Assembly: GCF_001465295.1 (NCBI RefSeq)
Contig: NZ_CP011034.1
Location: forward strand, 1,680,001 to 1,712,000
Length of the DNA stretch: 32,000 nucleotides
Direction of reading: 5' to 3'
Source: Pseudoalteromonas translucida KMM 520
GTDB lineage: Bacteria > Pseudomonadota > Gammaproteobacteria > Enterobacterales > Alteromonadaceae
The position numbers were made by a program, and so were the translations under genes. Shown in pieces: positions 5,762 through 16,976 of the stretch. A model generated the notes under the pieces. That model did no database searches, was not told the DNA's origin, and saw nothing but the letters and a program-made list of their open reading frames with translations. Within the stretch, counting starts at the first letter, position 1, and every line of letters begins with the position of its first letter.

Positions 5762-6724
5762 TTATAATCTTGAAAAAGGGCTAATAACACCATTAGCACC
5801 TTGTTGTAAAACATGGGTATATATTTGTGTAGTACGAACGTCACTGTGCCCAAGTTGTGTTTGTACTGTGCGTATATCAGCGCCGCTTTGCAGTAAGTGC
5901 GTAGCGAATGAGTGGCGCAAAGTATGTGGTGTAACGTGTTTATTAATGTGTGCATCAAAAGCCGCTTTTTTAACAGCACGCTGTAATTGCTTTTCATCAA
6001 TATGATGGCGCCTTAGTTGTTTACTCTCAGGATCAATACTGAGTTTATAAGATGGAAATACATATTGCCAACCCAGCTGTTTGTTATGATTTGGATATTT
6101 TTTACGTAATAAATGCGGCATATACACGCCACAAAACAGCGGGTTATTTAGGTCCAATTGTAAATAATTATCGACTAATTGAATTTGTGTTCGTATTTGT
6201 GGTATCAGCTCCTCTGCAAGCGTTACAACACGATTTTTGCCCCCTTTACCATCCCAAATTCGAACACAGTTATAATCAAAGTCAATATCTTGTATCCGCA
6301 AACGTAGTACCTCCATTAACCGCATACCGCTACCATAAAGTAGTGCACACGCTAAATAATGCTTTGTAATACAGTGTTTAAATAACGCTGAAACTTCTGT
6401 TTGTGTAAGCACAACGGGTAATTTTCTAGACCGTTCACTTTTTACAAAATCTAATGATAATGAGAGAGGACTTTTAATTATTTCTTTATATAGAAAACTT
6501 AGCGCATTCAATGCCTGGGATTGTGTGCCTTGCGCTACATTTTGCGAGTTTACTAAATGATTTAGATATAACTCCACTTGAGTATCCCCCATAGAGCTTG
6601 GGTGTTGCATATTATTAAAGCGGATATAGGCAGCTATCCAAAACAGATAAGCTTCAATAGTGCTCTTTGCATAACGCTTGCTATACATATGATCTTTAAT
6701 CATGGTTAGGAAGATAGACTTCAT
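5762..6724 (-). CDS. intI: integron integrase (tyrosine recombinase, IntI family)
   Basis: 320 aa. Tyrosine-recombinase boxes ([27 protein letters not shown]). The IntI-specific insertion ([35 protein letters not shown]) closely resembles VchIntIA/IntI1. Divergent from an attC-bearing array. Confidence 0.92.
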
Positions 6725-6966: not shown

Positions 6967-7665
6967 ATGAGTATATCAGCAGAGAAACGACATAGAGTTT
7001 TAATTAAATTTATGGATGAAGAATATGTAGAAAGCTTCATTAATGAAGGCCTGATATTTATGAATAATATCCAGTTCTTTCGAGAGTATGAAGATTCAGA
7101 TCCCGCATTACGTGGCGATGCGAAAGAAGGCCTTCGCGCAAGTTACTTGCCTGAAAATATTACATTAGAACTAAACGGTAGAACCTTGACTGCTCTTGTT
7201 GGTAAAGTTGAACTTCGAGAATCTCATCAAAATGAAACTAACATTTACAGCATGACCATTGTAAGTGATGCTGACATATTAGATGCAGGTGAAAAAGGTT
7301 TATATTTATCTGAAGATTTCAATAAATTTGGAAACAAAGCTGTTTTTATTGGTGGTAGCGATATCAATATTTTTTGGAACAGAGTCACTGAGGCGATAAA
7401 TAATAACGAAGATTTATTTACGTTAGAAGAAAACGTCGCGAAAAAGGTGACTTATGTAGATGCTAGTGAACATCATAGCGAATTAAATGTTTTCACTAAG
7501 TTTTCCGAGTACAAATGGCAACATGAATGGCGAGTTGCACTCAAACAAATTTCGTCGAGTGGTCCCTTAGAGTTAAGAGTCGGCAACCTATCAGACATTG
7601 CTCATATCACTGGTACTAAATCTTTAATACAGCAACCTTTAAAACTCGTGCAAAACAACTTATAA
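6967..7665 (+). CDS. hypothetical protein, integron cassette 1 (possibly DUF2971-like)
   Basis: 232 aa from ATG 6967 (alternative TTG at 6958). Stop TAA lies inside the attC R'' box. N-terminal K-F-x-x-x-x-F-I-x-x-G-x-I-F and C-terminal Y-K-W-Q-H-E-W-R pattern recalls DUF2971, from memory only. Confidence 0.7.
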   Translation: MSISAEKRHRVLIKFMDEEYVESFINEGLIFMNNIQFFREYEDSDPALRGDAKEGLRASYLPENITLELNGRTLTALVGKVELRESHQNETNIYSMTIVSDADILDAGEKGLYLSEDFNKFGNKAVFIGGSDINIFWNRVTEAINNNEDLFTLEENVAKKVTYVDASEHHSELNVFTKFSEYKWQHEWRVALKQISSSGPLELRVGNLSDIAHITGTKSLIQQPLKLVQNNL

Positions 7666-7685
7666 CAACACGCCCTGAGGTGGAC
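7660..7685 (+). other. attC of cassette 1, 5' arm (R''-L''), interrupted by an IS
   Basis: TTATAACAACACGCCCTGAGGTGGAC resembles the Vibrio VCR start TAACAAACGCCTCAAGAGGGAC. The same arm recurs at 12737, 13290 and 15717. Confidence 0.7.
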
Positions 7686-9215
7686 AGCAAGCACTAAAGT
7701 TCACTTTCCACCGCAAATTTTAACAGCGGTGATCCCTTACTTTTCAATGCGATTAAGTAAGTTGATTCATCGTAGGGCGTATGTGTTTTCCAGCACCTAA
7801 ATAGTATTCTTATCCACTTAAATGCTAATGATCTGATGATGGTATTATGGGGTTTTCCTTTGGCCTCTTGCTGCCGATAATATGCTTTTGCCCAAAATGA
7901 ATAACGCACAGATAATCCTGCCCATTCAACAAATGTTTGCCTTAAAAATTTAGTGCACGAATATCGCCAGTGTATCCATTCCTTCTTGCCACTGCGCTCG
8001 GTAACAGGGGCAATGCCTGCGTATTTTTGTATGTCAGCAGCGCACTTATAACGGTCACGATTTGACCCCATAGCGGCTAATAACCGAGGCGCTAATTGTG
8101 GTCCTGCACCTGGTAAACTATCAAAAATAGCGCGATCTGAATGTTGCTTATAAAGCGTTTTAATTTCGTTATCAAATCGGGTTATTGCCTGCATTAGATG
8201 TTTGAGTTGAGGAACGAGGCATTCAATAAGCAATAAGTTTGGCGTGATCACGGCCATATCATCGGTGAGAATTTCAGCATCCTTTATTTCTTTTATCCGC
8301 TTTTCATTAACGAGTGGGTAGCGGGAGTTATGTTGATTAAAGAAGTCGAGTAGTGTTTGCTTTCTCGCTTTTTTAGCGTGAGTAAGAGATGGCCAACGCA
8401 GTAAAAAGTCACAGAATATTTGAGTGTCCTTTTCTTTAAACCAATCAATCACGTGGGGGTAATAATTTTTTAGCGTTGTGGCTATTTTATTGGTTAAATT
8501 AACACGATCTTGTACTAATTTACGTCTGTATTCGACAAGCTGTGCAAGGCACCTAACTTCTTCTGTGTCAGGTCTAATAACCGTTAATTTATCCATGTGA
8601 AGTTGTAGAATTTCAACTTGAATAATCGCATCAGTAGGATCATCTTTAGCCCCGCTGTGCGAAAATGCTGCACGGTATTTGGCGACACTTGATGGGTTAA
8701 TCACAAATAATATAATGTGCTTAAATTTACTGAGTGCATATATAAGTGGACCTTTTTTTAGCTCACACGCGACAGCAACGGGTCTGCCGTTGTAGCGTTG
8801 TTTTAACTCAAGCGCCCATGCATTAATTGACTTAGGTTCAGAGGAAATCACACTTAAATGTTGTGTGTTTGTGTCGCGGTTTATTTCACAAATATCATGT
8901 TTACGGTCGGCCCAATCGATCCCGATAAGGGCAGCAAAACCTGAGACGTTAAAGGCTTCCATTTTGGGCCTCCTAGAGGTAAAGTGAAAGAATAAATAGA
9001 GGCTAATAGTGTTTCTCGCAAGTCTTATAGATAGTCGGCATTACGACAATCCCTGAGTATGCGTATTGAAACAAATTACTCCTGTTGATCCGAAAGTCTT
9101 GTTACAAACATTGATTGTTTCCGCTCAAATATTCGTGATCAACAGAAGCATATTCCATGTATTAATGAGATAGGTAAATACATTAATTAATGGAACGGAG
9201 TAACTATAAGTTGCT
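7686..9215 (-). mobile_element. intact IS110-family insertion sequence (variant A) inserted in attC
   Basis: Right boundary defined by comparing four attC/IS junctions. The left boundary (about 9215-9220) is tentative, from imperfect terminal inverted repeats AGCAAGCACTAAAGTTCAC (7686-7704) and GTAACTATAAGTTGCT (9200-9215). About 250 bp non-coding lies upstream of the transposase. Confidence 0.8.
7694..8962 (-). CDS. IS110-family transposase (DEDD RuvC-like N-domain plus C-terminal Ser recombinase-type domain)
   Basis: 422 aa. N-terminal IGIDWADRKHD, central AKDDPTDA, and C-terminal LPGAGPQLAPRLLA...YAGIAPVTERSGKK motif typical of Transposase_20/IS116-IS110-IS902. Confidence 0.92.
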   Translation of the reverse strand: MEAFNVSGFAALIGIDWADRKHDICEINRDTNTQHLSVISSEPKSINAWALELKQRYNGRPVAVACELKKGPLIYALSKFKHIILFVINPSSVAKYRAAFSHSGAKDDPTDAIIQVEILQLHMDKLTVIRPDTEEVRCLAQLVEYRRKLVQDRVNLTNKIATTLKNYYPHVIDWFKEKDTQIFCDFLLRWPSLTHAKKARKQTLLDFFNQHNSRYPLVNEKRIKEIKDAEILTDDMAVITPNLLLIECLVPQLKHLMQAITRFDNEIKTLYKQHSDRAIFDSLPGAGPQLAPRLLAAMGSNRDRYKCAADIQKYAGIAPVTERSGKKEWIHWRYSCTKFLRQTFVEWAGLSVRYSFWAKAYYRQQEAKGKPHNTIIRSLAFKWIRILFRCWKTHTPYDESTYLIALKSKGSPLLKFAVESEL

Positions 9216-9301
9216 CAAGCAGGACAAAATACAGTTGGTTTTTTGCTCGTGCCTCACTTATTTTAACCAACTATATTTTGCCTCTTAGCAAGGCGTTAGC
9301 T
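9216..9301 (+). other. attC of cassette 1, remaining loop and 3' arm (L'-R'), core GTTAGCT 9295-9301
   Basis: ...ACCAACTATATTTTGCCTCTTAGCAAGGCGTTAGCT. GGCG/CGCC and CCTC/GAGG segments pair with the 5' arm with bulged bases. The same 3' arm is seen at 14004-14035 and 22012-22041. Confidence 0.55.
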
Positions 9302-9351
9302 GACTAAACTGGCATTTGAACTAAATTCAGGATTTTGGAAAATGGATAAAT

Positions 9352-10395
9352 ATGAGTAACAATAAAACTGCTTTAAAAGTATCTGATAAAAGCATAGAAG
9401 AAGGAATTGCACAGGGTAACTTCAAAGAAGATGGAATCCTAATTCGTGATGTATCAAATGGACAAGTTGTAAAGGTGCTGAAGCAGAAAGAAGAAAGTTT
9501 GAACCACATCCCTTCAACCTTCATTCAGGTGCACCATAATTATATATATCAGGCCGACCTTTCTCCTATCCTTGAAGCTATTTCACATGAGAGAGAGTCA
9601 AGCCTATACAACGAATTAGAAGAACAATATAACTTAGTGTTAGATTATTTGGATTCTTTTAATACTTATGATACTGGAATTGAAAAAGTTCATCAGATCT
9701 GTCTTGAAATTTCAGTGTCATTTGATAATAAGATAAGGAGAGAGATTGAAGCTTTAGATATTGATGAGCTTGAAAAAATAGATACGGAAAGATTTGTTGG
9801 CTCATTAAATGCGTATGTTAAGATCCTATTCTCATATATCGTCAGTACCTACATCCTTCATAGGGATAAGTTCTCAAAAGATAAAGTAATTATATCTAAA
9901 ATTCTTAGTTTTGAAGGGGCTGTTAGATCACTCTATGAACAGGTTCTTGCTAAATCTAGCAAACAAAAGAACAAGGATGGGGAATTAATAAATATTATAC
10001 CCATGGAGGAGTCTCTGTACAGCATGTACTTGTTTGATGATAATTATGACCTCCATGACCTCGATCGACTAGTCTCGTATGATTCAAGGTTCTCAACATC
10101 ACTTCAAGTGATTAATTTCTTCAAAAAACACTTAAAAAATGGCAGCTTTCAGGGGGAAGGCTACGGCTATAGGGATAATGACGATGAATTAAAAATATCC
10201 ATTAGGTCTAAAAGGATATCAAAAGAAAGCAATAGAAATAAGATGGCTATCGTTCTTTTAAGAATACTAGAAGATATTGAGAAGTTGAAGGAAATCAGAG
10301 AAGAGGTAGTAAGCTTAAAAAATCTTTCAAATGAAGATGTATTGCAGAATTTCAGTGCTACGTCAGCTAACAAGAAAAATCAGTCGGACGCGTAA
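9352..10395 (+). CDS. hypothetical protein (347 aa, no domain recognised, predicted mostly helical, K/E-rich)
   Basis: Long ORF in a very AT-rich cassette, co-directional with and about 60 nt upstream of the ATPase gene. No recognisable motif. Confidence 0.7.
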   Translation: MSNNKTALKVSDKSIEEGIAQGNFKEDGILIRDVSNGQVVKVLKQKEESLNHIPSTFIQVHHNYIYQADLSPILEAISHERESSLYNELEEQYNLVLDYLDSFNTYDTGIEKVHQICLEISVSFDNKIRREIEALDIDELEKIDTERFVGSLNAYVKILFSYIVSTYILHRDKFSKDKVIISKILSFEGAVRSLYEQVLAKSSKQKNKDGELINIIPMEESLYSMYLFDDNYDLHDLDRLVSYDSRFSTSLQVINFFKKHLKNGSFQGEGYGYRDNDDELKISIRSKRISKESNRNKMAIVLLRILEDIEKLKEIREEVVSLKNLSNEDVLQNFSATSANKKNQSDA

Positions 10396-10421
10396 ACGCG
10401 CCGCTGTTTTTGGCGTTAGCA
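10391..10421 (+). other. possible vestigial attC / cassette junction (GGCGTTAGCA)
   Basis: cgTAAACGCGCCgctgtttttGGCGTTAGCa. The 3' part is identical to the ends of the array's attC 3' arms. GTTAGCA (10415-10421) is the exact complement of R'' TGCTAAC (12737-12743). Confidence 0.35.
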
Positions 10422-10456
10422 CTACAATGAATATTCATCAATTAACTGGAGAAGTT

Positions 10457-11779
10457 ATGATAAAGGAATTCTTTATTACAGAACTCTATGAAGAGAGAAA
10501 TGTAAGAATAAAATTCGACGATCCATATAAAATATTAGTAGCTGAGAATGGTTACGGTAAAACAACCATTTTAAACTCTTTTTATGCATTATTATCTGGT
10601 GAAATTTCGAAGCTAAGAAAAATTTCTTTTGAAACAGTAGGCATAGTGTTTAGCGATGGAGAGACTATATGCTTCAAAAAATCAGAGTTTGATGCTGATC
10701 TGGCTTTAATTCGGGAGCACCCTCTGTTTGAGCATATTGAATCAAGGTTTGGGCAGGAGTTCATTTTACAACTAATTGATGATGTTAGGCGTTTCCCAAG
10801 CCATAGAATGGAAATGTCACCTGTATTTAGGAGAGTGGTTGATGAACTTGACTTGCCAGCTAGGGTTTTAAAGGATAGCTTACGAGAAATTCGCCCAAAA
10901 GGCTTCAATAGAAAAAAAGTAAAGTCATCAACACAAAATAAATTAGAAAGTATTGCTAATAAAGTGAATTTGAAGACTTTATACCTTCCTACATATCGAA
11001 GAGTCGAAGAAGATATTAGAGCTTTTAATAGTTCCGGGAAGGGCACTTTAGATGAACATAGTTCAATCAATTTTGGGATGCGTGATGTTCAGCTGAGTAT
11101 TGAAAAAATAACCTCTGAAATTTTAAGTTCATCAGTTGAATGGTTTTCGAAAATAAATGGAGAAATGCTGAGTCAGTTAGTAAGTGGATTCTTAGTCACT
11201 CCTGAAATGAAGACTTCAATTTCTGATCCCAAAGCAGTTGAAATTGTGCTTGAGCGTATTGGTAAGCATATTTCTGAACCTCAGAAAAAACAAATATTAG
11301 ATTTAGTTGAGACAGGAAAAATTCAGAATGATCATGATCCTCTAATATATTTTGTAAGTAACCTTTTAAAGGTATATGAGCAACAGCAAGAAAACGATGA
11401 AGCGATTCAAAAATTCACAAATGTATGTAATAGGTATCTAGTAGATAAAGAAATTATTTACGATGAAAGTAATGTGACTATTGATATTGTTAGAAAAAAG
11501 AATAATAGAACGGTTGATATTGAAAGTTTGTCCTCTGGTGAAAAGCAAATTATTTCATTGTTTGCATTGTTGTATCTTCAAAAGAAAGAAAACCTAGCTA
11601 TTTTCTTTGATGAGCCTGAATTATCCCTATCTATGGAGTGGCAAAAGACTCTGCTACCTGACATTGTTAATTCTGGAAAATGTAAATTTCTTTTTTCAAC
11701 TACTCACTCTCCTTTTATTTTTGAAAATGAACTTGAAGATCATACTGTTGATTTGTTTGAGTACATTGAGGAATTGTAA
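10457..11779 (+). CDS. ABC/SMC-type AAA ATPase (AAA_15/AAA_21-like; PARIS AriA-like)
   Basis: Start at ATG 10457 with GGAG 5 nt upstream (track ORF 10331 extension rejected). Walker A AENGYGKTT, Q-loop-like LPTYRR, signature LSSGEKQ, Walker B IFFDEPELSLS, H-loop TTHSP. Confidence 0.85.
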   Translation: MIKEFFITELYEERNVRIKFDDPYKILVAENGYGKTTILNSFYALLSGEISKLRKISFETVGIVFSDGETICFKKSEFDADLALIREHPLFEHIESRFGQEFILQLIDDVRRFPSHRMEMSPVFRRVVDELDLPARVLKDSLREIRPKGFNRKKVKSSTQNKLESIANKVNLKTLYLPTYRRVEEDIRAFNSSGKGTLDEHSSINFGMRDVQLSIEKITSEILSSSVEWFSKINGEMLSQLVSGFLVTPEMKTSISDPKAVEIVLERIGKHISEPQKKQILDLVETGKIQNDHDPLIYFVSNLLKVYEQQQENDEAIQKFTNVCNRYLVDKEIIYDESNVTIDIVRKKNNRTVDIESLSSGEKQIISLFALLYLQKKENLAIFFDEPELSLSMEWQKTLLPDIVNSGKCKFLFSTTHSPFIFENELEDHTVDLFEYIEEL

Positions 11780-12726
11780 TGTCTAGAGTTGATGTGCTTA
11801 AAAAATCTAGGGATTCCATTTCAGTAAAGTTTTTAGAGTTTACTAGAATTGTCTCGAAAGGGGCTAATAAGGTAGCTGTATTTTTTGAGGGTGAAGACGA
11901 GAAATATTTTTCAGTAAGAATTAACAACATACGTCCGGACATACAATGGTCGGGCGTTAATTCTAAAGGGAAGTCAAATGTAATAAAGTTAAGAAATAAA
12001 ATACGGAAACACTCTACTTATCAGAATGCTTCGTGCTTATTCTTTGTAGATAGTGATTTTGATTGTAACTCCGATATAAATGGTTTTAATGATATATATA
12101 TAACGCCATGCTATTCAATCGAAAATCTCTTTTTGTCAAGCGCAACTTTTGAAAGAGTGATGACAGCTGAATTCGGTTTATCTGATGTTTCAGAAGAGCA
12201 TAAATGCTACCAAAGAGCTTTAGAGGTATATGACACGACCAAAGAGAGTTATCTACAAGTGATTAAGGAATTTAATTACCTTATTAGAGAATTAAGGAAT
12301 ATGGAAAAAAATGGGGCATTGAGTAGCAGACTTAATATTAATAATTTGAATATTAGTGACTTAATATCAGTGAATTTAGGGAGTGTTTCTAAAGAATACG
12401 ATGAAAGTAAACCAATAACTCTATTTCCAGAACTTCCTGAAAATCTCCAAGTTTCACTTCAAAGCTCTGTTGAGCACTTTAATGATCTCTGTTTTGAGCA
12501 ATGGTTTAGAGGGAAGCAACATTTGGAATTCCTTAGAGTCTTCTTAGGAAGAATTAAAGAAGATAGATGTAAGAAAAAAGACAGAACGATATTTCATGCT
12601 AAAGTCAATGTAAAATTGAGTTTAACTAAGGCAAATTGTATTTCAGAATTGAGTCAGTATGCAGATACACCGACTTGTTTAAAAGAGTTCTTAGAAAGAC
12701 AAATACTAGATAAATCAGTGGCCTAA
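11779..12726 (+). CDS. DUF4435 / OLD-type TOPRIM-like protein (PARIS AriB-like putative nuclease effector)
   Basis: Start overlaps the ATPase stop (TAATG). Motifs VFFEGEDEKYF, FFVDSDFD and CYSIENLF match my recollection of DUF4435 conserved blocks (EG-x-x-D, D-x-D, IEN). Confidence 0.75.
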   Translation: MSRVDVLKKSRDSISVKFLEFTRIVSKGANKVAVFFEGEDEKYFSVRINNIRPDIQWSGVNSKGKSNVIKLRNKIRKHSTYQNASCLFFVDSDFDCNSDINGFNDIYITPCYSIENLFLSSATFERVMTAEFGLSDVSEEHKCYQRALEVYDTTKESYLQVIKEFNYLIRELRNMEKNGALSSRLNINNLNISDLISVNLGSVSKEYDESKPITLFPELPENLQVSLQSSVEHFNDLCFEQWFRGKQHLEFLRVFLGRIKEDRCKKKDRTIFHAKVNVKLSLTKANCISELSQYADTPTCLKEFLERQILDKSVA

Positions 12727-12736
12727 TAAACAGTAG

Positions 12737-12762
12737 TGCTAACAACACGCCCTGAGGTGGAC
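12737..12762 (+). other. attC 5' arm of the ATPase/DUF4435 cassette (R'' TGCTAAC)
   Basis: TGCTAACAACACGCCCTGAGGTGGAC, 11 nt after the DUF4435 stop. Interrupted at the same nucleotide as attC 1. Confidence 0.7.
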
Positions 12763-13292
12763 AGCAAGCACTAAAGTTCACTTTCCACCGCAAATTTTAA
12801 CAGCGGTGATCCCTTACTTTTCAATGCGATTAAGTAAGTTGATTCATCGTAGGGCGTATGTGTTTTCCAGCACCTAAATAGTATTCTTATCCACTTAAAT
12901 GCTAATGATCTGATGATGGTATTATGGGGTTTTCCTTTGGCCTCTTGCTGCCGATAATATGCTTTTGCCCAAAATGAATAACGCACAGATAATCCTGCCC
13001 ATTCAACAAATGTTTGCCTTAAAAATTTAGTGCACGAATATCGCCAGTGTATCCATTCCTTCTTGCCACTGCGCTCGGTAACAGGGGCAATGCCTGCGTA
13101 TTTTTGTATGTCAGCAGCGCACTTATAACGGTCACGATTTGACCCCATAGCGGCTAATAACCGAGGCGCTAATTGTGGTCCTGCACCTGGTAAACTATCA
13201 AAAATAGCGCGATCTGAATGTTGCTTATAAAGCGTTTTAATTTCGTCATCAAATCGGGTTATTGCCTGCATTAGATGTTTGAGTTGAGGAAC
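12763..13292 (-). mobile_element. truncated copy of IS variant A (3' ~530 bp only)
   Basis: Essentially identical to 7686-8215 (I saw one substitution, N->D). Homology ends at GAGGAAC, where an attC-arm sequence begins. Confidence 0.85.
12771..13271 (-). pseudogene. IS110-family transposase fragment (C-terminal 166 aa)
   Basis: The ORF product equals the C-terminus of the 422-aa transposase. The N-terminal 256 codons are absent. Confidence 0.9.
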
Positions 13293-13311
13293 AACACGCC
13301 CTGAGGTGGAC
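13290..13311 (+). other. second attC 5'-arm copy (AACAACACGCCCTGAGGTGGAC) fused to the truncated IS
   Basis: The exact arm sequence reappears. The AAC at 13290-13292 is shared between IS-A sequence and the attC R'' box. Confidence 0.6.
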
Positions 13312-13990
13312 GACTAGTAAAATTTAGCTATTAATTGCAAATTTTAAAAGTGGTGAGCCTCTGCGTTTTAATGCAGCTAAATACGTCGATTCATCGTAGG
13401 GTGTATTCGTTTTCCAACACCTAAATACAATCCTTATCCATTTAAATGCCAGTGATCTAATAATGCTGCTATGCGGCTTACCCTTGGCTTTTTGTTGCTC
13501 ATAATACGCTTTAGCCCAAAATGAATAACGAATAGAAAAGCCTGCCCATTCTACAAATGTTTGCCTTAAAAAAGTGGGGCAACTATAACGCCAATGCGTC
13601 CACATCTTTTGACCACTGCGCTCAATAACAGGCGCTATACCAGCGTACTTTTGAAGTTCTGCAGCATCATTGTAACGCGCACGATTGCTCCCAAAAGCAA
13701 CAAGTAAACGTGGGGCGAGTTGTGGACCTGCACCGGGTAAGCTATCAAATATCTTTTTATCTTGCTGGGCTTTATAAGCCGATTTTATTGCTTTATCGAG
13801 CTTTTCAATACCTTTTAATAACACTTTAAACTGCGTAATAAGCACTTCAACGAGCATTTGATTAGGCACAATGACTCCTTCATCCAGAGTTAATGGCATC
13901 GCATTTTTAATACTGTCTAGTCGTGCATTATTGACCGTGCAATAGTGTGAGTTATGACTCTCGAAAAAGTCGAGTAAAAGTTGGCCATCG
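13312..13990 (-). mobile_element. 5'-truncated IS110-family element, variant B
   Basis: Diverged homologue of variant A, with clearly related protein but many substitutions. It starts at the same attC position but with different terminal bases (GACTAGTAA). Confidence 0.8.
13324..13986 (-). pseudogene. IS110-family transposase fragment (variant B, C-terminal ~200 aa)
   Basis: Track ORF 13324-13899 plus upstream homology without a start. The N-terminal catalytic domain is missing. Confidence 0.85.
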
Positions 13991-14003
13991 CTACGCGATT
14001 ATA

Positions 14004-14035
14004 GCCAACCATTTTTATCCGCTTAGCAAGGCGTT
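14004..14035 (+). other. attC 3' arm (…CCAACCATTTTTATCCGCTTAGCAAGGCGTT)
   Basis: Aligns with 9265-9297. Ends in the GTT that is duplicated by the MITE insertion. Confidence 0.6.
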
Positions 14036-14181
14036 GAGGCTGTAGAATTACTCTTTTTTAAGAAAAACAGCCTGTTTTATGGGTTCCAAATGCATTACCT
14101 AATGCTCTAAAAACGCTTAGAATTAATTGTAGGAGCTCGTTTTTTAATAGATTTTGGCTGTTGGAGTTATTCTACAGCCTC
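14036..14181. mobile_element. 146-bp MITE-like element with 18-bp terminal inverted repeats inserted in the attC core
   Basis: TIRs GAGGCTGTAGAATTACTC (14036-14053) and GAGTTATTCTACAGCCTC (14164-14181) match 17/18. Flanked by direct GTT (14033-14035 and 14182-14184). Removing it restores CTTAGCAAGGCGTTAGCTG, as at 9285-9302. Confidence 0.6.
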
Positions 14182-14672: not shown

Positions 14673-15136
14673 GTGTAATCAGCCAACTAATCGGGTAGCC
14701 GGAGGTCTCTAACCTCCAGCCCCCACACCACCCATCATGCGGGTCCGCAATGTGCGGTTCATCTCCCGTGACGAATACCGATCCAAATATCTCTCAATGA
14801 CACTAAACCTTGTGACGCTAAATAGTCATTACCTAGCGCAATGTTAATTCTTTTTTTTTTTGAGCTTCTACAAGGGCCTTTACTGGTGATACCACAGGCT
14901 ATGGCGAGCCGTTCGCTAACACCTAGTTTTATTAAACTGCGTATTAGTGCGTGGTTTACGCTATTGCCGCCAGTAGCACATTCATATCCTACGGCGGATC
15001 CAATGATCTAAATCCACCGTTAGCTGATAAGTATTGGCTACTAGATAATAGTGTCGTATCAGCTAGTTCGTCTTTAGCCTACGCTTGATATGATATTCCC
15101 ATCGACAACTGATGCGCATCACGCTACACTTATTAC

Positions 15137-15416
15137 ATGATTAAATCTTTTAAGCACAAAGGCCTTAAAAAAATACTTCCAAACTGGCAGCGTCTCCGGT
15201 ATTCAGGCAAAGCATGAACGTAAATTACGTATGCAACTTGCCGCAATAGATACCGCACAAGAAATTGATGATATCAATTTACCAGGCTTTAAGTTACATC
15301 CATTAAAAGGGAATCGTGACGGAGTTTGGTCTATTACTGTAAATGGTAATTGGCGTATTACTTTCGAGTTTATCGATGGTAATGCTTATATTTTGAACTA
15401 TGAGGACTATCACTAA
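15137..15416 (+). pseudogene. higB: HigB-family (RelE/ParE superfamily) toxin, +1 frameshift in an A7 run
   Basis: ATG 15137 reads MIKSFKHKGLKK, then stops early. Deleting one A of the run 15167-15173 restores ...KKYFQTGSVSGIQAKHERKLRMQL... continuous with track ORF 15231-15416. Total length is 280 nt, i.e. 3n+1. Confidence 0.8.
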
Positions 15417-15712
15417 TGAGTATGCATCATAATCCACCACATCCTGGGGAGTTTATCTATGACGTTTATTTGGAGCCTTCTGGCTTTAGCTGCCGTTATT
15501 TAGCTAAACAGTTGGATGTTGCATCGTCGACTTTAAATAGAGTTCTAAAAGGTCAAAGCGCTATCTCACCTGAAATGGCACTTCGCTTATCTAAAGCAAT
15601 TGGCAGAACTCCTGAGAGTTGGCTATCAATGCAAGATAACTACGATCTCTGGCATGCTAAACAGAAAATAAATTTAACCAATGTCCACTGTGTAAATTTT
15701 GCAGGGGCATAA
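15416..15712 (+). CDS. higA: HigA-family antitoxin (XRE HTH)
   Basis: 98 aa. PHPGEFI... and HTH LAKQLDVASSTLNRVLKGQSAISPEMALRLSKAIG typical of HigA/VapI. Start overlaps the higB stop (TAATG). Confidence 0.85.
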   Translation: MSMHHNPPHPGEFIYDVYLEPSGFSCRYLAKQLDVASSTLNRVLKGQSAISPEMALRLSKAIGRTPESWLSMQDNYDLWHAKQKINLTNVHCVNFAGA

Positions 15713-15716
15713 AAAT

Positions 15717-15740
15717 ATAGCAATACGCCCTGAGGTGGAC
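15717..15740 (+). other. degenerate attC 5' arm (ATAGCAATACGCCCTGAGGTGGAC)
   Basis: Matches the arm consensus except two substitutions, one of which destroys the AAC of R''. Followed by an IS end. Confidence 0.6.
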
Positions 15741-15975
15741 AGCAAGTATTAAAACTTACTTTCCATCGCAAATTTTAAAAGTGGTGAGCCTCTGTGTTTT
15801 AAGGCTGCTAAATACGTTGATTCATCTTAGCGTTTTCCAAAAAATAAAAGGACAGGCATAAAATATTTGCCAGTCCCTTTCTAACACCTAAATACGCTCC
15901 TTATCTATTTAAATGCCAGTGAGCTAATAATGCTGTTATGTGGTTTACTTTTGGCTTTGTTACTTAAAATGCACT
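15741..15975 (-). mobile_element. remnant (3' end only) of an IS110-family element, variant C; end of recognisable integron array
   Basis: Aligns with 13330-13520 of variant B (GCAAATTTTAAAAGTGGTGAGCCTCTG...), with a small deletion and a 42-bp insertion. No intact ORF. Confidence 0.7.
15841..15882. repeat. REP-like hairpin insertion (GGACAGGCA-N9-TGCCAGTCC)
   Basis: Present in variant C but absent from the aligned variant B sequence (CGTTTTCCA|ACACCTAAATAC). Its core GGACAGGCATAAAA matches the left flank of the Y1 transposase at 26712-26725. Confidence 0.55.
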
Positions 15976-16091: not shown

Positions 16092-16976
16092 TTATGTTGT
16101 TTTTTTAGCTTGGTCAATAAAGTCATTTAAGTAGTCTATATGCTGCTCGTTGTTACGAATACCGACAAATATTTGTTTGTTAATACCTTGCTCTCCAAAC
16201 CTTAGGCTTTTGATAGGCATTGTTTTAGAATACTCGTCTACTAGCCAGCCAGGTAAAGCACAAATACCGCGACCCGCAGCGACCATTTGCAGCATAATTT
16301 CGGTTGTTTCAATGGTTTTATGTTTTTTTACTGAGCACTTTGCCGGATTAAGAAACTGGCTAAAAATATCAAGCCTTAGTGGCTCTACAGGGTAACTAAA
16401 CAATACTTCTTCGCTTAGTTGCTCGGGTAACACAAACTCTTGCGTTGCAAGTTTATGGGATTTAGCAACTACGAGTCTGTGTTCGTAGTTAAACACAGGT
16501 ATATAGCTTATTTTAGGTTTAAAAAGTGGATCGGGTGTTATTAGTACGTCAATTTCGTAGCTTAGTAATGCACCTAAAGCGCCAAACTGAAACTCCTGCT
16601 TTACGTCAATGTCTATGTCTGGCCAATGCTCTAAATAGGGCTCAATTACTCTAAGTAACCATTGGTAACAAGGATGGCACTCCATGCCAATGCGTAGCGA
16701 GCCCAGTTCACCTTTGGCAATTTGATTTAGTAATAATTCAGTATGTACAAACTGCGGTAATACTCTGTTTGCCAGTGTTTGAATGTGCTCACCAGCCGCT
16801 GTAAGGCGCAAATTTCGACCGTCTTTTTTCCATATTGGCGTACCAACTTGGCCTTCTAGTTTTTTAATACTGTGACTTAGTGCCGATTGCGATAAGTACA
16901 ACGAATTTGCTGCCTTAGTTAGGGTTCCATGTTCTTTTATGGCGGTTAGTATTTCTAAGTGGATCCTTTCCAGCAC
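16092..16976 (-). CDS. metR: LysR-family transcriptional regulator, MetR-like
   Basis: 294 aa. N-terminal HTH ...SQSALSHSIKKLE... and RLTAAGE..LANRVLPQ pattern like MetR. Adjacent to methionine-synthase genes. Confidence 0.65.
   Translation of the reverse strand: MLERIHLEILTAIKEHGTLTKAANSLYLSQSALSHSIKKLEGQVGTPIWKKDGRNLRLTAAGEHIQTLANRVLPQFVHTELLLNQIAKGELGSLRIGMECHPCYQWLLRVIEPYLEHWPDIDIDVKQEFQFGALGALLSYEIDVLITPDPLFKPKISYIPVFNYEHRLVVAKSHKLATQEFVLPEQLSEEVLFSYPVEPLRLDIFSQFLNPAKCSVKKHKTIETTEIMLQMVAAGRGICALPGWLVDEYSKTMPIKSLRFGEQGINKQIFVGIRNNEQHIDYLNDFIDQAKKTT

Follow-up and report, generated by a model that had tools for sequence, protein, structure and literature searches.

Three neighbouring genes in a chromosomal integron raise the question of whether they form a single defence system or have been placed side by side by cassette shuffling. 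The locus was analysed within a window of 32,000 nucleotides (the whole stretch of DNA studied) from Pseudoalteromonas translucida KMM 520, in which the integron cassettes are oriented rightwards from ~6950. Three co-directional open reading frames (ORFs) were confirmed there at 9352-10395 (ORF1, coding for a protein of 347 amino acids (aa)), 10457-11779 (ORF2) and 11779-12726 (ORF3), in a region that is indeed AT-rich, with a GC content of 0.33-0.34 compared with 0.44 in the left-hand core genes (a catabolic operon). A sequence-only reading, made without database searches, had taken the roughly 3.4 kb occupied by these ORFs as one oversized cassette encoding a PARIS-like pair of an ATPase (ORF2) and a DUF4435/TOPRIM protein (ORF3), with the ORF1 product as a possible third component of a new variant or, alternatively, as an independent cassette or unrelated cargo.

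The results reported here favour the last of these options. With a probability of roughly 0.85, the locus comprises two independent cassettes, one carrying an orphan gene (ORF1) and the other a canonical two-gene PARIS system (ariA and ariB), whose outer attC sites have been split by insertion sequences (ISs). The stretch 9296-14033 would accordingly be read as cassette A (9296-10415, ORF1 alone) followed by cassette B (10416-14033, PARIS), and the apparent three-gene PARIS variant would be an accident of cassette order, a tempting over-interpretation that is corrected here. PARIS belongs to a known type, and the orphan ORF1 cassette, unrelated to it, is the only lead at this locus with real potential for novelty.

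The attC between ORF1 and the ATPase gene

The view of the region as a single cassette fails because a third, complete attC (10365-10421) separates ORF1 from ORF2. The spacer between the two genes reads AGCTAAC-aagaaaaatcagtcggacgcg-taaa-cgcgccgctgtttttggc-GTTAGCA, and the site extends over the stop codon of ORF1 and the 10 codons before it. Its bottom strand folds into a canonical hairpin with bulged bases (-16.4 kcal/mol, z = -3.4), and the pairing was retained in 90.6% of cells compared with 32-48% in slid controls. The site is conserved 3' of the ORF1 homologues in loci L001-L004, L006 and L007 and decayed in L009, and the same attC follows the ORF1 homologues of Marinobacter fuscus, a gammaproteobacterial metagenome-assembled genome, Vreelandella stevensii, Photobacterium andalusiense, Shewanella psychrotolerans, and S. 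algae, the DNA beyond its G|TT being different in every one of these genomes. On the 5' side, the ORF1 loci of other genera become alike exactly at GTTAGCT (9295-9301), with unrelated sequences upstream. Homology limits at G|TT, as expected of integron cassettes, were therefore found at both ends of ORF1, and also at the 5' end and attC of the AriAB cassette in comparison with the metagenome contig L016. Given the internal attC and the breakpoints at both G|TT crossovers, ORF1 appears to constitute its own discrete cassette of 1,120 bp, separate from ariAB.

The expectation that ORF1 homologues would accompany ATPase/DUF4435 pairs in other genomes was not borne out either. Searches with the window proteins (tblastn, +/-8 kb) detected AriA or AriB near ORF1 homologues in 0/15 loci, and ORF1 was found at 0/29 AriAB loci. 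With its own attC, its own breakpoints, and no co-occurrence in 44 loci, the 347-aa protein is, as judged from sequence comparison, not part of PARIS, and its adjacency to the pair appears to be a product of cassette shuffling.

The AriA/AriB pair and its cassette

The assignment of ORF2 and ORF3 to PARIS, proposed from the motifs alone, was upheld by profile, sequence and fold matches. ORF2 matched the Pfam models AAA_15 (53.6 bits, full length) and AAA_21 (45.0 bits), and ORF3 matched DUF4435 over the whole model (109.6 bits), which places the pair within the published PARIS detection rule of a co-located AAA_15 (>= 32 bits) or AAA_21 (>= 27 bits) and DUF4435 (>= 27 bits) (PMC9122126). The best PADLOC models were AriA (PDLC04164, E = 1.3e-30) for ORF2 and AriB (E = 5.5e-32) for ORF3. 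In addition, residues 5-431 of ORF2 aligned to residues 9-437 of the solved AriA 8ux9_B (also 8v45) with E = 2e-14, the best sequence match in the PDB. The motifs GYGKTT, LSSGEKQ, FFDEPE, and TTHSP that had been read from the letters are all present in the ORF2 translation, and their counterparts in 8ux9_B (GYGKTT/GAGKST, LSSGEKQ/LSSGERQ, FFDEPE/LIDEPE, and THSP/THSP) revealed that the Walker A lysine, signature, Walker B glutamate and H-loop of an ABC ATPase are intact and in register.

ORF3, which is 100% identical to PTRA_a1844, carries the EGEDE, DSD, and IEN blocks described earlier, and its start overlaps the stop of ORF2 by 1 nt (TAATG), likewise as described. The residues E37, E39, D40, D91, D93, D95, and E115 were invariant in 22 family members, providing the acidic residues typical of TOPRIM (numbered as in the window protein). 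The AlphaFold model of ORF3 (predicted local distance difference test (pLDDT) score 83.9) gave a sole significant PDB match, AriB 8ux9_A (E = 6.6e-6, probability 1.00), and neither phmmer nor a 22-sequence profile run against the PDB found a match to the solved AriB by sequence. For ariA, the start at 10457 was favoured over a longer ORF from 10331 because GGAG sits 7 nt before its ATG. AriA lay directly upstream of AriB in all 29 AriB-relative loci, wherever upstream sequence was available. Taken together, ORF2 and ORF3 are best described as a putative canonical two-gene PARIS (AriA/AriB) pair.

PARIS confers phage resistance by abortive infection and requires both genes. In E. coli, an AriA hexamer sequesters three AriB, which are released in an ATP-dependent manner in response to a phage protein, and the released AriB dimer cleaves tRNA-Lys, so that translation is arrested (PMC11464382). 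AriA residues K39 and E393 are essential there, and the conserved acidic metal-binding residues of AriB are E26, D30, D88, E90, and E122. The KMM 520 pair resembles PARIS of the P4-like satellite of E. coli B185 (PMC9122126, PMC11464382; PDB 8ux9, 8v45-49) in having an ATPase gene followed by an adjacent DUF4435 TOPRIM gene, in protein size (AriA 464 aa and AriB 306 aa in E. coli, 440 aa and 315 aa in the window), and in the conservation of the ATPase catalytic motifs and acidic TOPRIM residues, with a full-length alignment for AriA and a fold match for AriB. It differs in that the sequences are distant, AriB lacking a sequence-level match altogether, and in genomic setting, which is a phage satellite hotspot in E. 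coli and an integron cassette in a marine Pseudoalteromonas here.

By analogy with the E. coli system, AriA may assemble into an ATP-dependent sensor scaffold in which AriB is sequestered; the detection of a phage protein would then release the AriB TOPRIM nuclease, which would cleave host tRNA, stop translation, and thus cause abortive infection. The trigger is probably other than Ocr, because the pore residues of AriA show poor conservation from clade to clade (PMC11464382), of which 11 have been published for AriA/AriB.

That the defence module is cassette-borne, as the sequence-only reading held, agrees with the comparison of related loci. The AriAB cassette begins with TTAGCACTACAA at 10416, a 5' start shared with the attC-flanked AriAB cassette of L016. 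In its closest relatives (85% and 75% identity, L016-L019), AriAB forms a two-gene cassette between two intact attCs of ~92-102 bp; a DarT-NADAR cassette comes before it, and a 373-aa gene and then a GmrSD gene come after it. An attC-type hairpin was found right after AriB in 7/17 distinct AriAB loci and on both sides in 3, compared with ~1 expected by chance. The first version of the attC detector, which demanded R''/R' complementarity at 6 of 7 positions, missed a known site, and a relaxed version was used instead; as this gives ~1 false match per 5 kb, the 7/17 count is approximate. Based on the attC-flanked copies of L016-L019, the shared start, and these hairpins, the two-gene PARIS cassette appears to be a recurrent mobile unit. 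Marine gammaproteobacteria thus harbour a complete two-gene PARIS system that circulates in a cassette with attC sites on either side.

Two further observations concern the surroundings of AriAB relatives. The array on contig L016 (1-7001) is almost all defence, consisting of DarT with a NADAR-type antitoxin, AriAB, the 373-aa unknown, and a GmrSD-type (DUF262) gene. The V. cholerae relatives (L021-L023; 73% and 58% identity; L021 6682-8942) adjoin a filamentous prophage with Zot, RstB, and Rep_trans genes, not the superintegron.

The PARIS cassette fits, and slightly extends, the recent view of integrons as defence biobanks. According to the preprint of Darracq et al. (bioRxiv 10.1101/2024.07.02.601686), protection was observed for 18% of the V. 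cholerae cassettes of unknown function that were tested, and integron-borne defence systems never exceed two components, a ceiling with which a two-gene PARIS cassette is consistent. As in the integron-cassette defence reported there and in Kieffer 2025 and Getz 2025 (both cited in bioRxiv 10.64898/2026.03.17.712381), a single cassette of a sedentary chromosomal integron contains a known system of no more than two components. Compared with the cassettes of Darracq et al., the host is Pseudoalteromonas instead of Vibrio, and ~2.4 kb lies at the large end of the sizes. PARIS cassettes are not mentioned in the accessible main text or supplement of the Darracq preprint.

IS110-family elements in the attC sites

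The outer cores between which the three ORFs had been placed, GTTAGCT at 9295 and TGCTAAC at 12737, are genuine attC cores, as assumed; they are not, however, the ends of intact attCs, both sites being split by IS110-family elements (Table 1). On the left, the stop of the cassette 1 gene overlaps the R'' TTATAAC (7660-7666), and an intact IS, whose exact ends are ambiguous by a shared AA, has been inserted into the attC of this cassette. Its transposase contains DEDD_Tnp_IS110 and Transposase_20 domains (NF033542, 169 bits). Joining 7660-7668 to 9210-9301 restores an attC of 101 bp with a hairpin of -18.7 kcal/mol and 81/102 positions identical to an intact attC of L016. On the right, the AriAB attC is interrupted by a truncated copy and a diverged fragment, and it agrees with the intact attC after AriB in L016 at 62/70 of its retained positions. 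The R''...R' cores and bulged hairpin of an attC are thus present in the ORF1 attC and the reconstituted cassette 1 attC, and the AriAB attC is recognisable but defective.

Table 1. Features of the integron array and of the IS110-family insertions in the window
Feature	Position	Strand	Remarks
intI integron integrase	5762..6724	-	320 aa tyrosine recombinase; TIGR02249 517.7 bits (cutoff 265); Phage_integrase and Phage_int_SAM_4
Cassette 1 gene, 235 aa	6958..7665	+	phrog_26561 (phage protein family of unknown function), E = 1.7e-55
Cassette 1 attC, 5' part	7660..7668	+	R'' TTATAAC plus AA
Intact IS110-family IS, ~1,541 bp	7669..9209	-	Transposase 7694-8962; inserted in cassette 1 attC
Cassette 1 attC, 3' part	9210..9301	+	Ends in R' GTTAGCT (9295-9301)
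ORF1 cassette, single gene, 1,120 bp	9296..10415	+	Homology between genomes breaks at the G|TT crossover on both sides
ORF1, 347-aa orphan protein	9352..10395	+	Co-directional with ORF2 and ORF3
ORF1 cassette attC, 57 bp, complete	10365..10421	+	R'' AGCTAAC 10365-10371; R' GTTAGCA 10415-10421
AriAB (PARIS) cassette as now standing, 3,618 bp	10416..14033	+	~2.4 kb without IS debris
ariA (ORF2), ABC/SMC-type ATPase, 440 aa	10457..11779	+	AAA_15, AAA_21, PADLOC AriA, 8ux9_B alignment
ariB (ORF3), DUF4435/TOPRIM nuclease, 315 aa	11779..12726	+	DUF4435, PADLOC AriB, 8ux9_A fold match
AriAB attC, 5' part	12737..12745	+	R'' TGCTAAC (12737-12743) plus AA; identical to L016 AriAB attC start
Truncated IS copy	12746..13292	-	3' part of transposase gene only; 166-aa Transposase_20 ORF
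Diverged IS fragment, internal deletions	13293..13976	-	~72% identical to intact IS, in blocks; 191-aa Transposase_20 ORF
AriAB attC, 3' part	13979..14039	+	R' GTTGAGG 14033-14039; ~22 nt of 5' arm missing
Fourth IS footprint	15722-15955		Array end

In 4/4 copies or fragments, the junction xxxxAAC AA|CACGCCCTGAGG occupies one fixed point of the attC, right behind R'' plus AA, with the element always oriented alike, and the IS110-family element appears to target attC sites specifically. In addition, 7667-8215 and 12744-13292 (including the shared AA) form a direct repeat of 549 bp with one mismatch that brackets the ORF1 and AriAB cassettes, and homologous recombination between the repeats could delete both cassettes together. 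The element has a 247-nt non-coding region upstream of the transposase gene and ~25 nt downstream, which is the IS110-type layout. The idea of a guide RNA in this element was considered. An Rfam search of the non-coding region matched no family; 7-mers of the 247-nt region match both flanks of the attC target, but so do those of 23-26% of shuffles.

Insertion sequences of the IS1111-attC group, which Tetu and Holmes are said to have dealt with in 2008, invite comparison with this element. The group (ISKpn4, ISPst6, and ISPa25; PMC11187229) shares with it a DEDD transposase of the IS110/IS1111 superfamily, a fixed position and orientation at one attC end, and a decayed footprint at the array end. 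The IS1111-type layout, however, has its long non-coding region (seekRNA) on the downstream side of tnp (PMC11187229), whereas that of the window IS lies upstream of tnp, which sets the element apart from this type.

The IS separates both cassettes from the integron promoter Pc. Moreover, since the AriAB attC cannot fold and the attC upstream of ORF1 has been stretched to 1.6 kb, the ORF1 and AriAB cassettes are probably immobile and no longer excisable by IntI, an instance of an attC-targeting IS freezing such cassettes in place. A similar case is the IS-containing Sucellos cassette of V. cholerae, in which the IS likewise enlarges the cassette and was argued probably to immobilise it.

The ORF1 family, competing explanations and the rest of the array

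The absence of any recognisable motif in ORF1, remarked on from the sequence, was corroborated by searches of Pfam, PADLOC, NCBIfam, and PHROGs, all without a match. The family is small, with 30 close homologues and only 60 relatives in a profile search of 1.84 billion cluster representatives. Full-length relatives of ~310-360 aa have a single domain and align end to end without fusions, the shorter matches being fragments. A Pfam scan of 42 diverse members yielded only scattered single chance matches and no consistent domain, and the ORF1 profile found nothing below E = 0.07 among PDB sequences. The AlphaFold (AF2) model (pLDDT 72.8, predicted template modelling (TM) score (pTM) 0.71) predicts a small beta domain at the N-terminus and a helix at the C-terminus, together with a long bundle of helices, and Foldseek returned no significant match (best E 0.85 in the PDB and 0.18 in BFVD). 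Y223 and D244 are invariant in the family, and D69, L89, S221, and R246 nearly so (the D-S-R-F block); no recognisable catalytic motif was seen in ORF1, and no matches were found in sequenced phages or plasmids. A pore-forming toxin was considered and rejected, as the ClyA/Hbl/Nhe/Mak helical toxins were matched only at a probability <= 0.1 with a TM score of ~0.15, and the predicted hairpin (residues 203-215) is not hydrophobic.

ORF1 occurs in at least 7 gammaproteobacterial genera. In both Shewanella genomes it is a single cassette beside intI, and in Vibrio cholerae it is located inside a superintegron-type array. Its neighbours include a DpnII-type restriction cassette in Shewanella and type I restriction-modification (R-M) with DUF4145 in Pseudoalteromonas, and further contexts are one Proteus prophage and one small Pseudomonas islet. 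In the Proteus terrae prophage (L009/L010, 8001-9057), the ORF1 cassette lies outside any integron, in an accessory stretch with the tail genes on one side and the integrase on the other; its likeness to the Shewanella copy begins exactly at GTTAGCT and its attC has decayed (R' GTT to GCC), which suggests capture of the cassette at a secondary site. In Vreelandella stevensii (L003, 8001-10117), an insertion of ~1.08 kb divides the ORF1 homologue into residues 1-218 and 218-347, and an integron integrase fragment lies nearby.

Among the competing explanations, the one from which the question arose, namely a single oversized three-gene cassette with the 347-aa protein as sensor or modulator of a PARIS variant, draws on the adjacency, shared direction and short spacers of ORF1-ORF3, on their common low GC content, and on the IS copies that bracket all three jointly. 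It is very improbable in view of the complete attC between ORF1 and ariA, the coincidence of both ORF1 cassette limits with comparative breakpoints, the lack of co-occurrence at either set of loci, and the AriAB relatives with 85% and 75% identity, which form a two-gene cassette following DarT-NADAR and not ORF1. The IS copies could also suggest that ORF1 and AriAB were mobilised jointly as a composite unit, with the direct ISs and not the integron as the vehicle, given the intact IS on the left and the near-identical 549-bp fragment (one mismatch) in direct orientation on the right. Every IS copy (4/4), however, occupies the stereotyped attC position after R'' plus AA, the attC halves outside the ISs match ordinary array attCs, and ORF1 and AriAB are each found elsewhere without the IS. 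Furthermore, IS110-family elements move as single circles via site-specific recombination, and they are not known as composite transposons, so that joint IS-borne mobilisation is scarcely credible.

It was also considered whether ORF2 and ORF3 might belong to another ABC-ATPase and TOPRIM system, such as AbiL, the Gabija/OLD class, MADS3-4, or a Septu/PtuA-like system. ORF2 also matches many PtuA models (E = 1e-14 to 1e-9) and MAD3, the AbiLii model matches ORF3 weakly (E = 0.016), and the AAA15/21 ATPase is common to these families, AbiL (AbiLi/AbiLii) and other OLD-like systems sharing the combination of such an ATPase with a TOPRIM nuclease (PMC11464382). Against this stand the top PADLOC matches, AriA and AriB, which are ahead of all others (for ORF3, 5.5e-32 compared with 0.016 for AbiLii), the match of 110 bits to the full DUF4435 model, the only significant fold match of ORF3 in the PDB being AriB (OLD E = 0.36), and the full-length AriA match as the best of ORF2 in PDB sequences; an origin outside PARIS is hence hardly to be expected. 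A different matter is whether ORF1 itself is an independent, single-gene anti-phage, anti-mobile-element or other conflict system of a new family. The wide dissemination of the cassette across genera would fit this idea, as would its frequent defence neighbours (PARIS, DpnII-type restriction, and type I R-M with DUF4145), its location beside the integrase in the accessory part of the Proteus prophage, and the ~2.2-fold enrichment of cassettes for defence systems given in bioRxiv 10.1101/2024.07.02.601686. ORF1 nevertheless resembles no PADLOC model, Pfam domain, or solved or viral structure, shows no catalytic motif, and is not matched in sequenced phages or plasmids, and guilt by association is weak in integron arrays because neighbours are shuffled at random. 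A defence role for ORF1 is therefore tentative and rather doubtful, the credence given to it deriving entirely from context and the known enrichment of cassettes in defence genes. As a widely shuffled orphan cassette, ORF1 is a cheap candidate for a phage-defence screen, and, if the idea were true, it would represent a previously undescribed single-gene system in a self-contained 1.1-kb cassette that has even been captured by a prophage (Proteus).

Several points count against the favoured reading of an orphan ORF1 cassette beside an independent, canonical PARIS cassette. The internal attC showed one compensatory pair, which is not above shuffles, the sequences being too similar, so that the case for this attC is based on fold and breakpoints. 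The 15 ORF1 loci represent about 10 distinct contexts, a small sample, and the adjacency in KMM 520 could in principle permit a functional interaction between ORF1 and PARIS. The anti-phage activity, the complex and the tRNA target are all extrapolated from a distant E. coli homologue (AriA E = 2e-14), to whose solved AriB the window AriB has no sequence-level match. In addition, a search of the sequence upstream of ORF1 and of ariA gave no sigma-70-like promoter, and, with the IS lying between the cassettes and Pc, the system may be silent.

The rest of the array conforms to an integron, the cassettes lying downstream of intI in a co-directional series that ends on the right before a LysR gene at 16092. 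The 235-aa protein of cassette 1 had no match in Pfam or NCBIfam searches. Beyond the AriAB cassette, the segment 14034-14182 is 149 bp long, lacks an ORF, lies between the R'-like cores GTTGAGG and GTTAGCT, and folds almost perfectly into a long hairpin with arms of 18 nt (-26.3 kcal/mol, z = -5.6); this segment could represent a cassette that is empty or degenerate, or else an attC-like element lacking a canonical R''. Further to the right, a non-coding, relatively GC-rich stretch of ~240 nt (14673-14913) separates a gene with a PG_binding domain from its attC (14914-15025), and an Rfam search of this stretch at E <= 0.1 gave no family. The last cassette (15137-15712) contains a higBA-type toxin-antitoxin pair, in which a frameshift within an A-run leaves the higB-like toxin gene with a stop after 26 codons, the remainder being readable in the +1 frame, and the HigA antitoxin is intact (TIGR02607, E = 8e-31).

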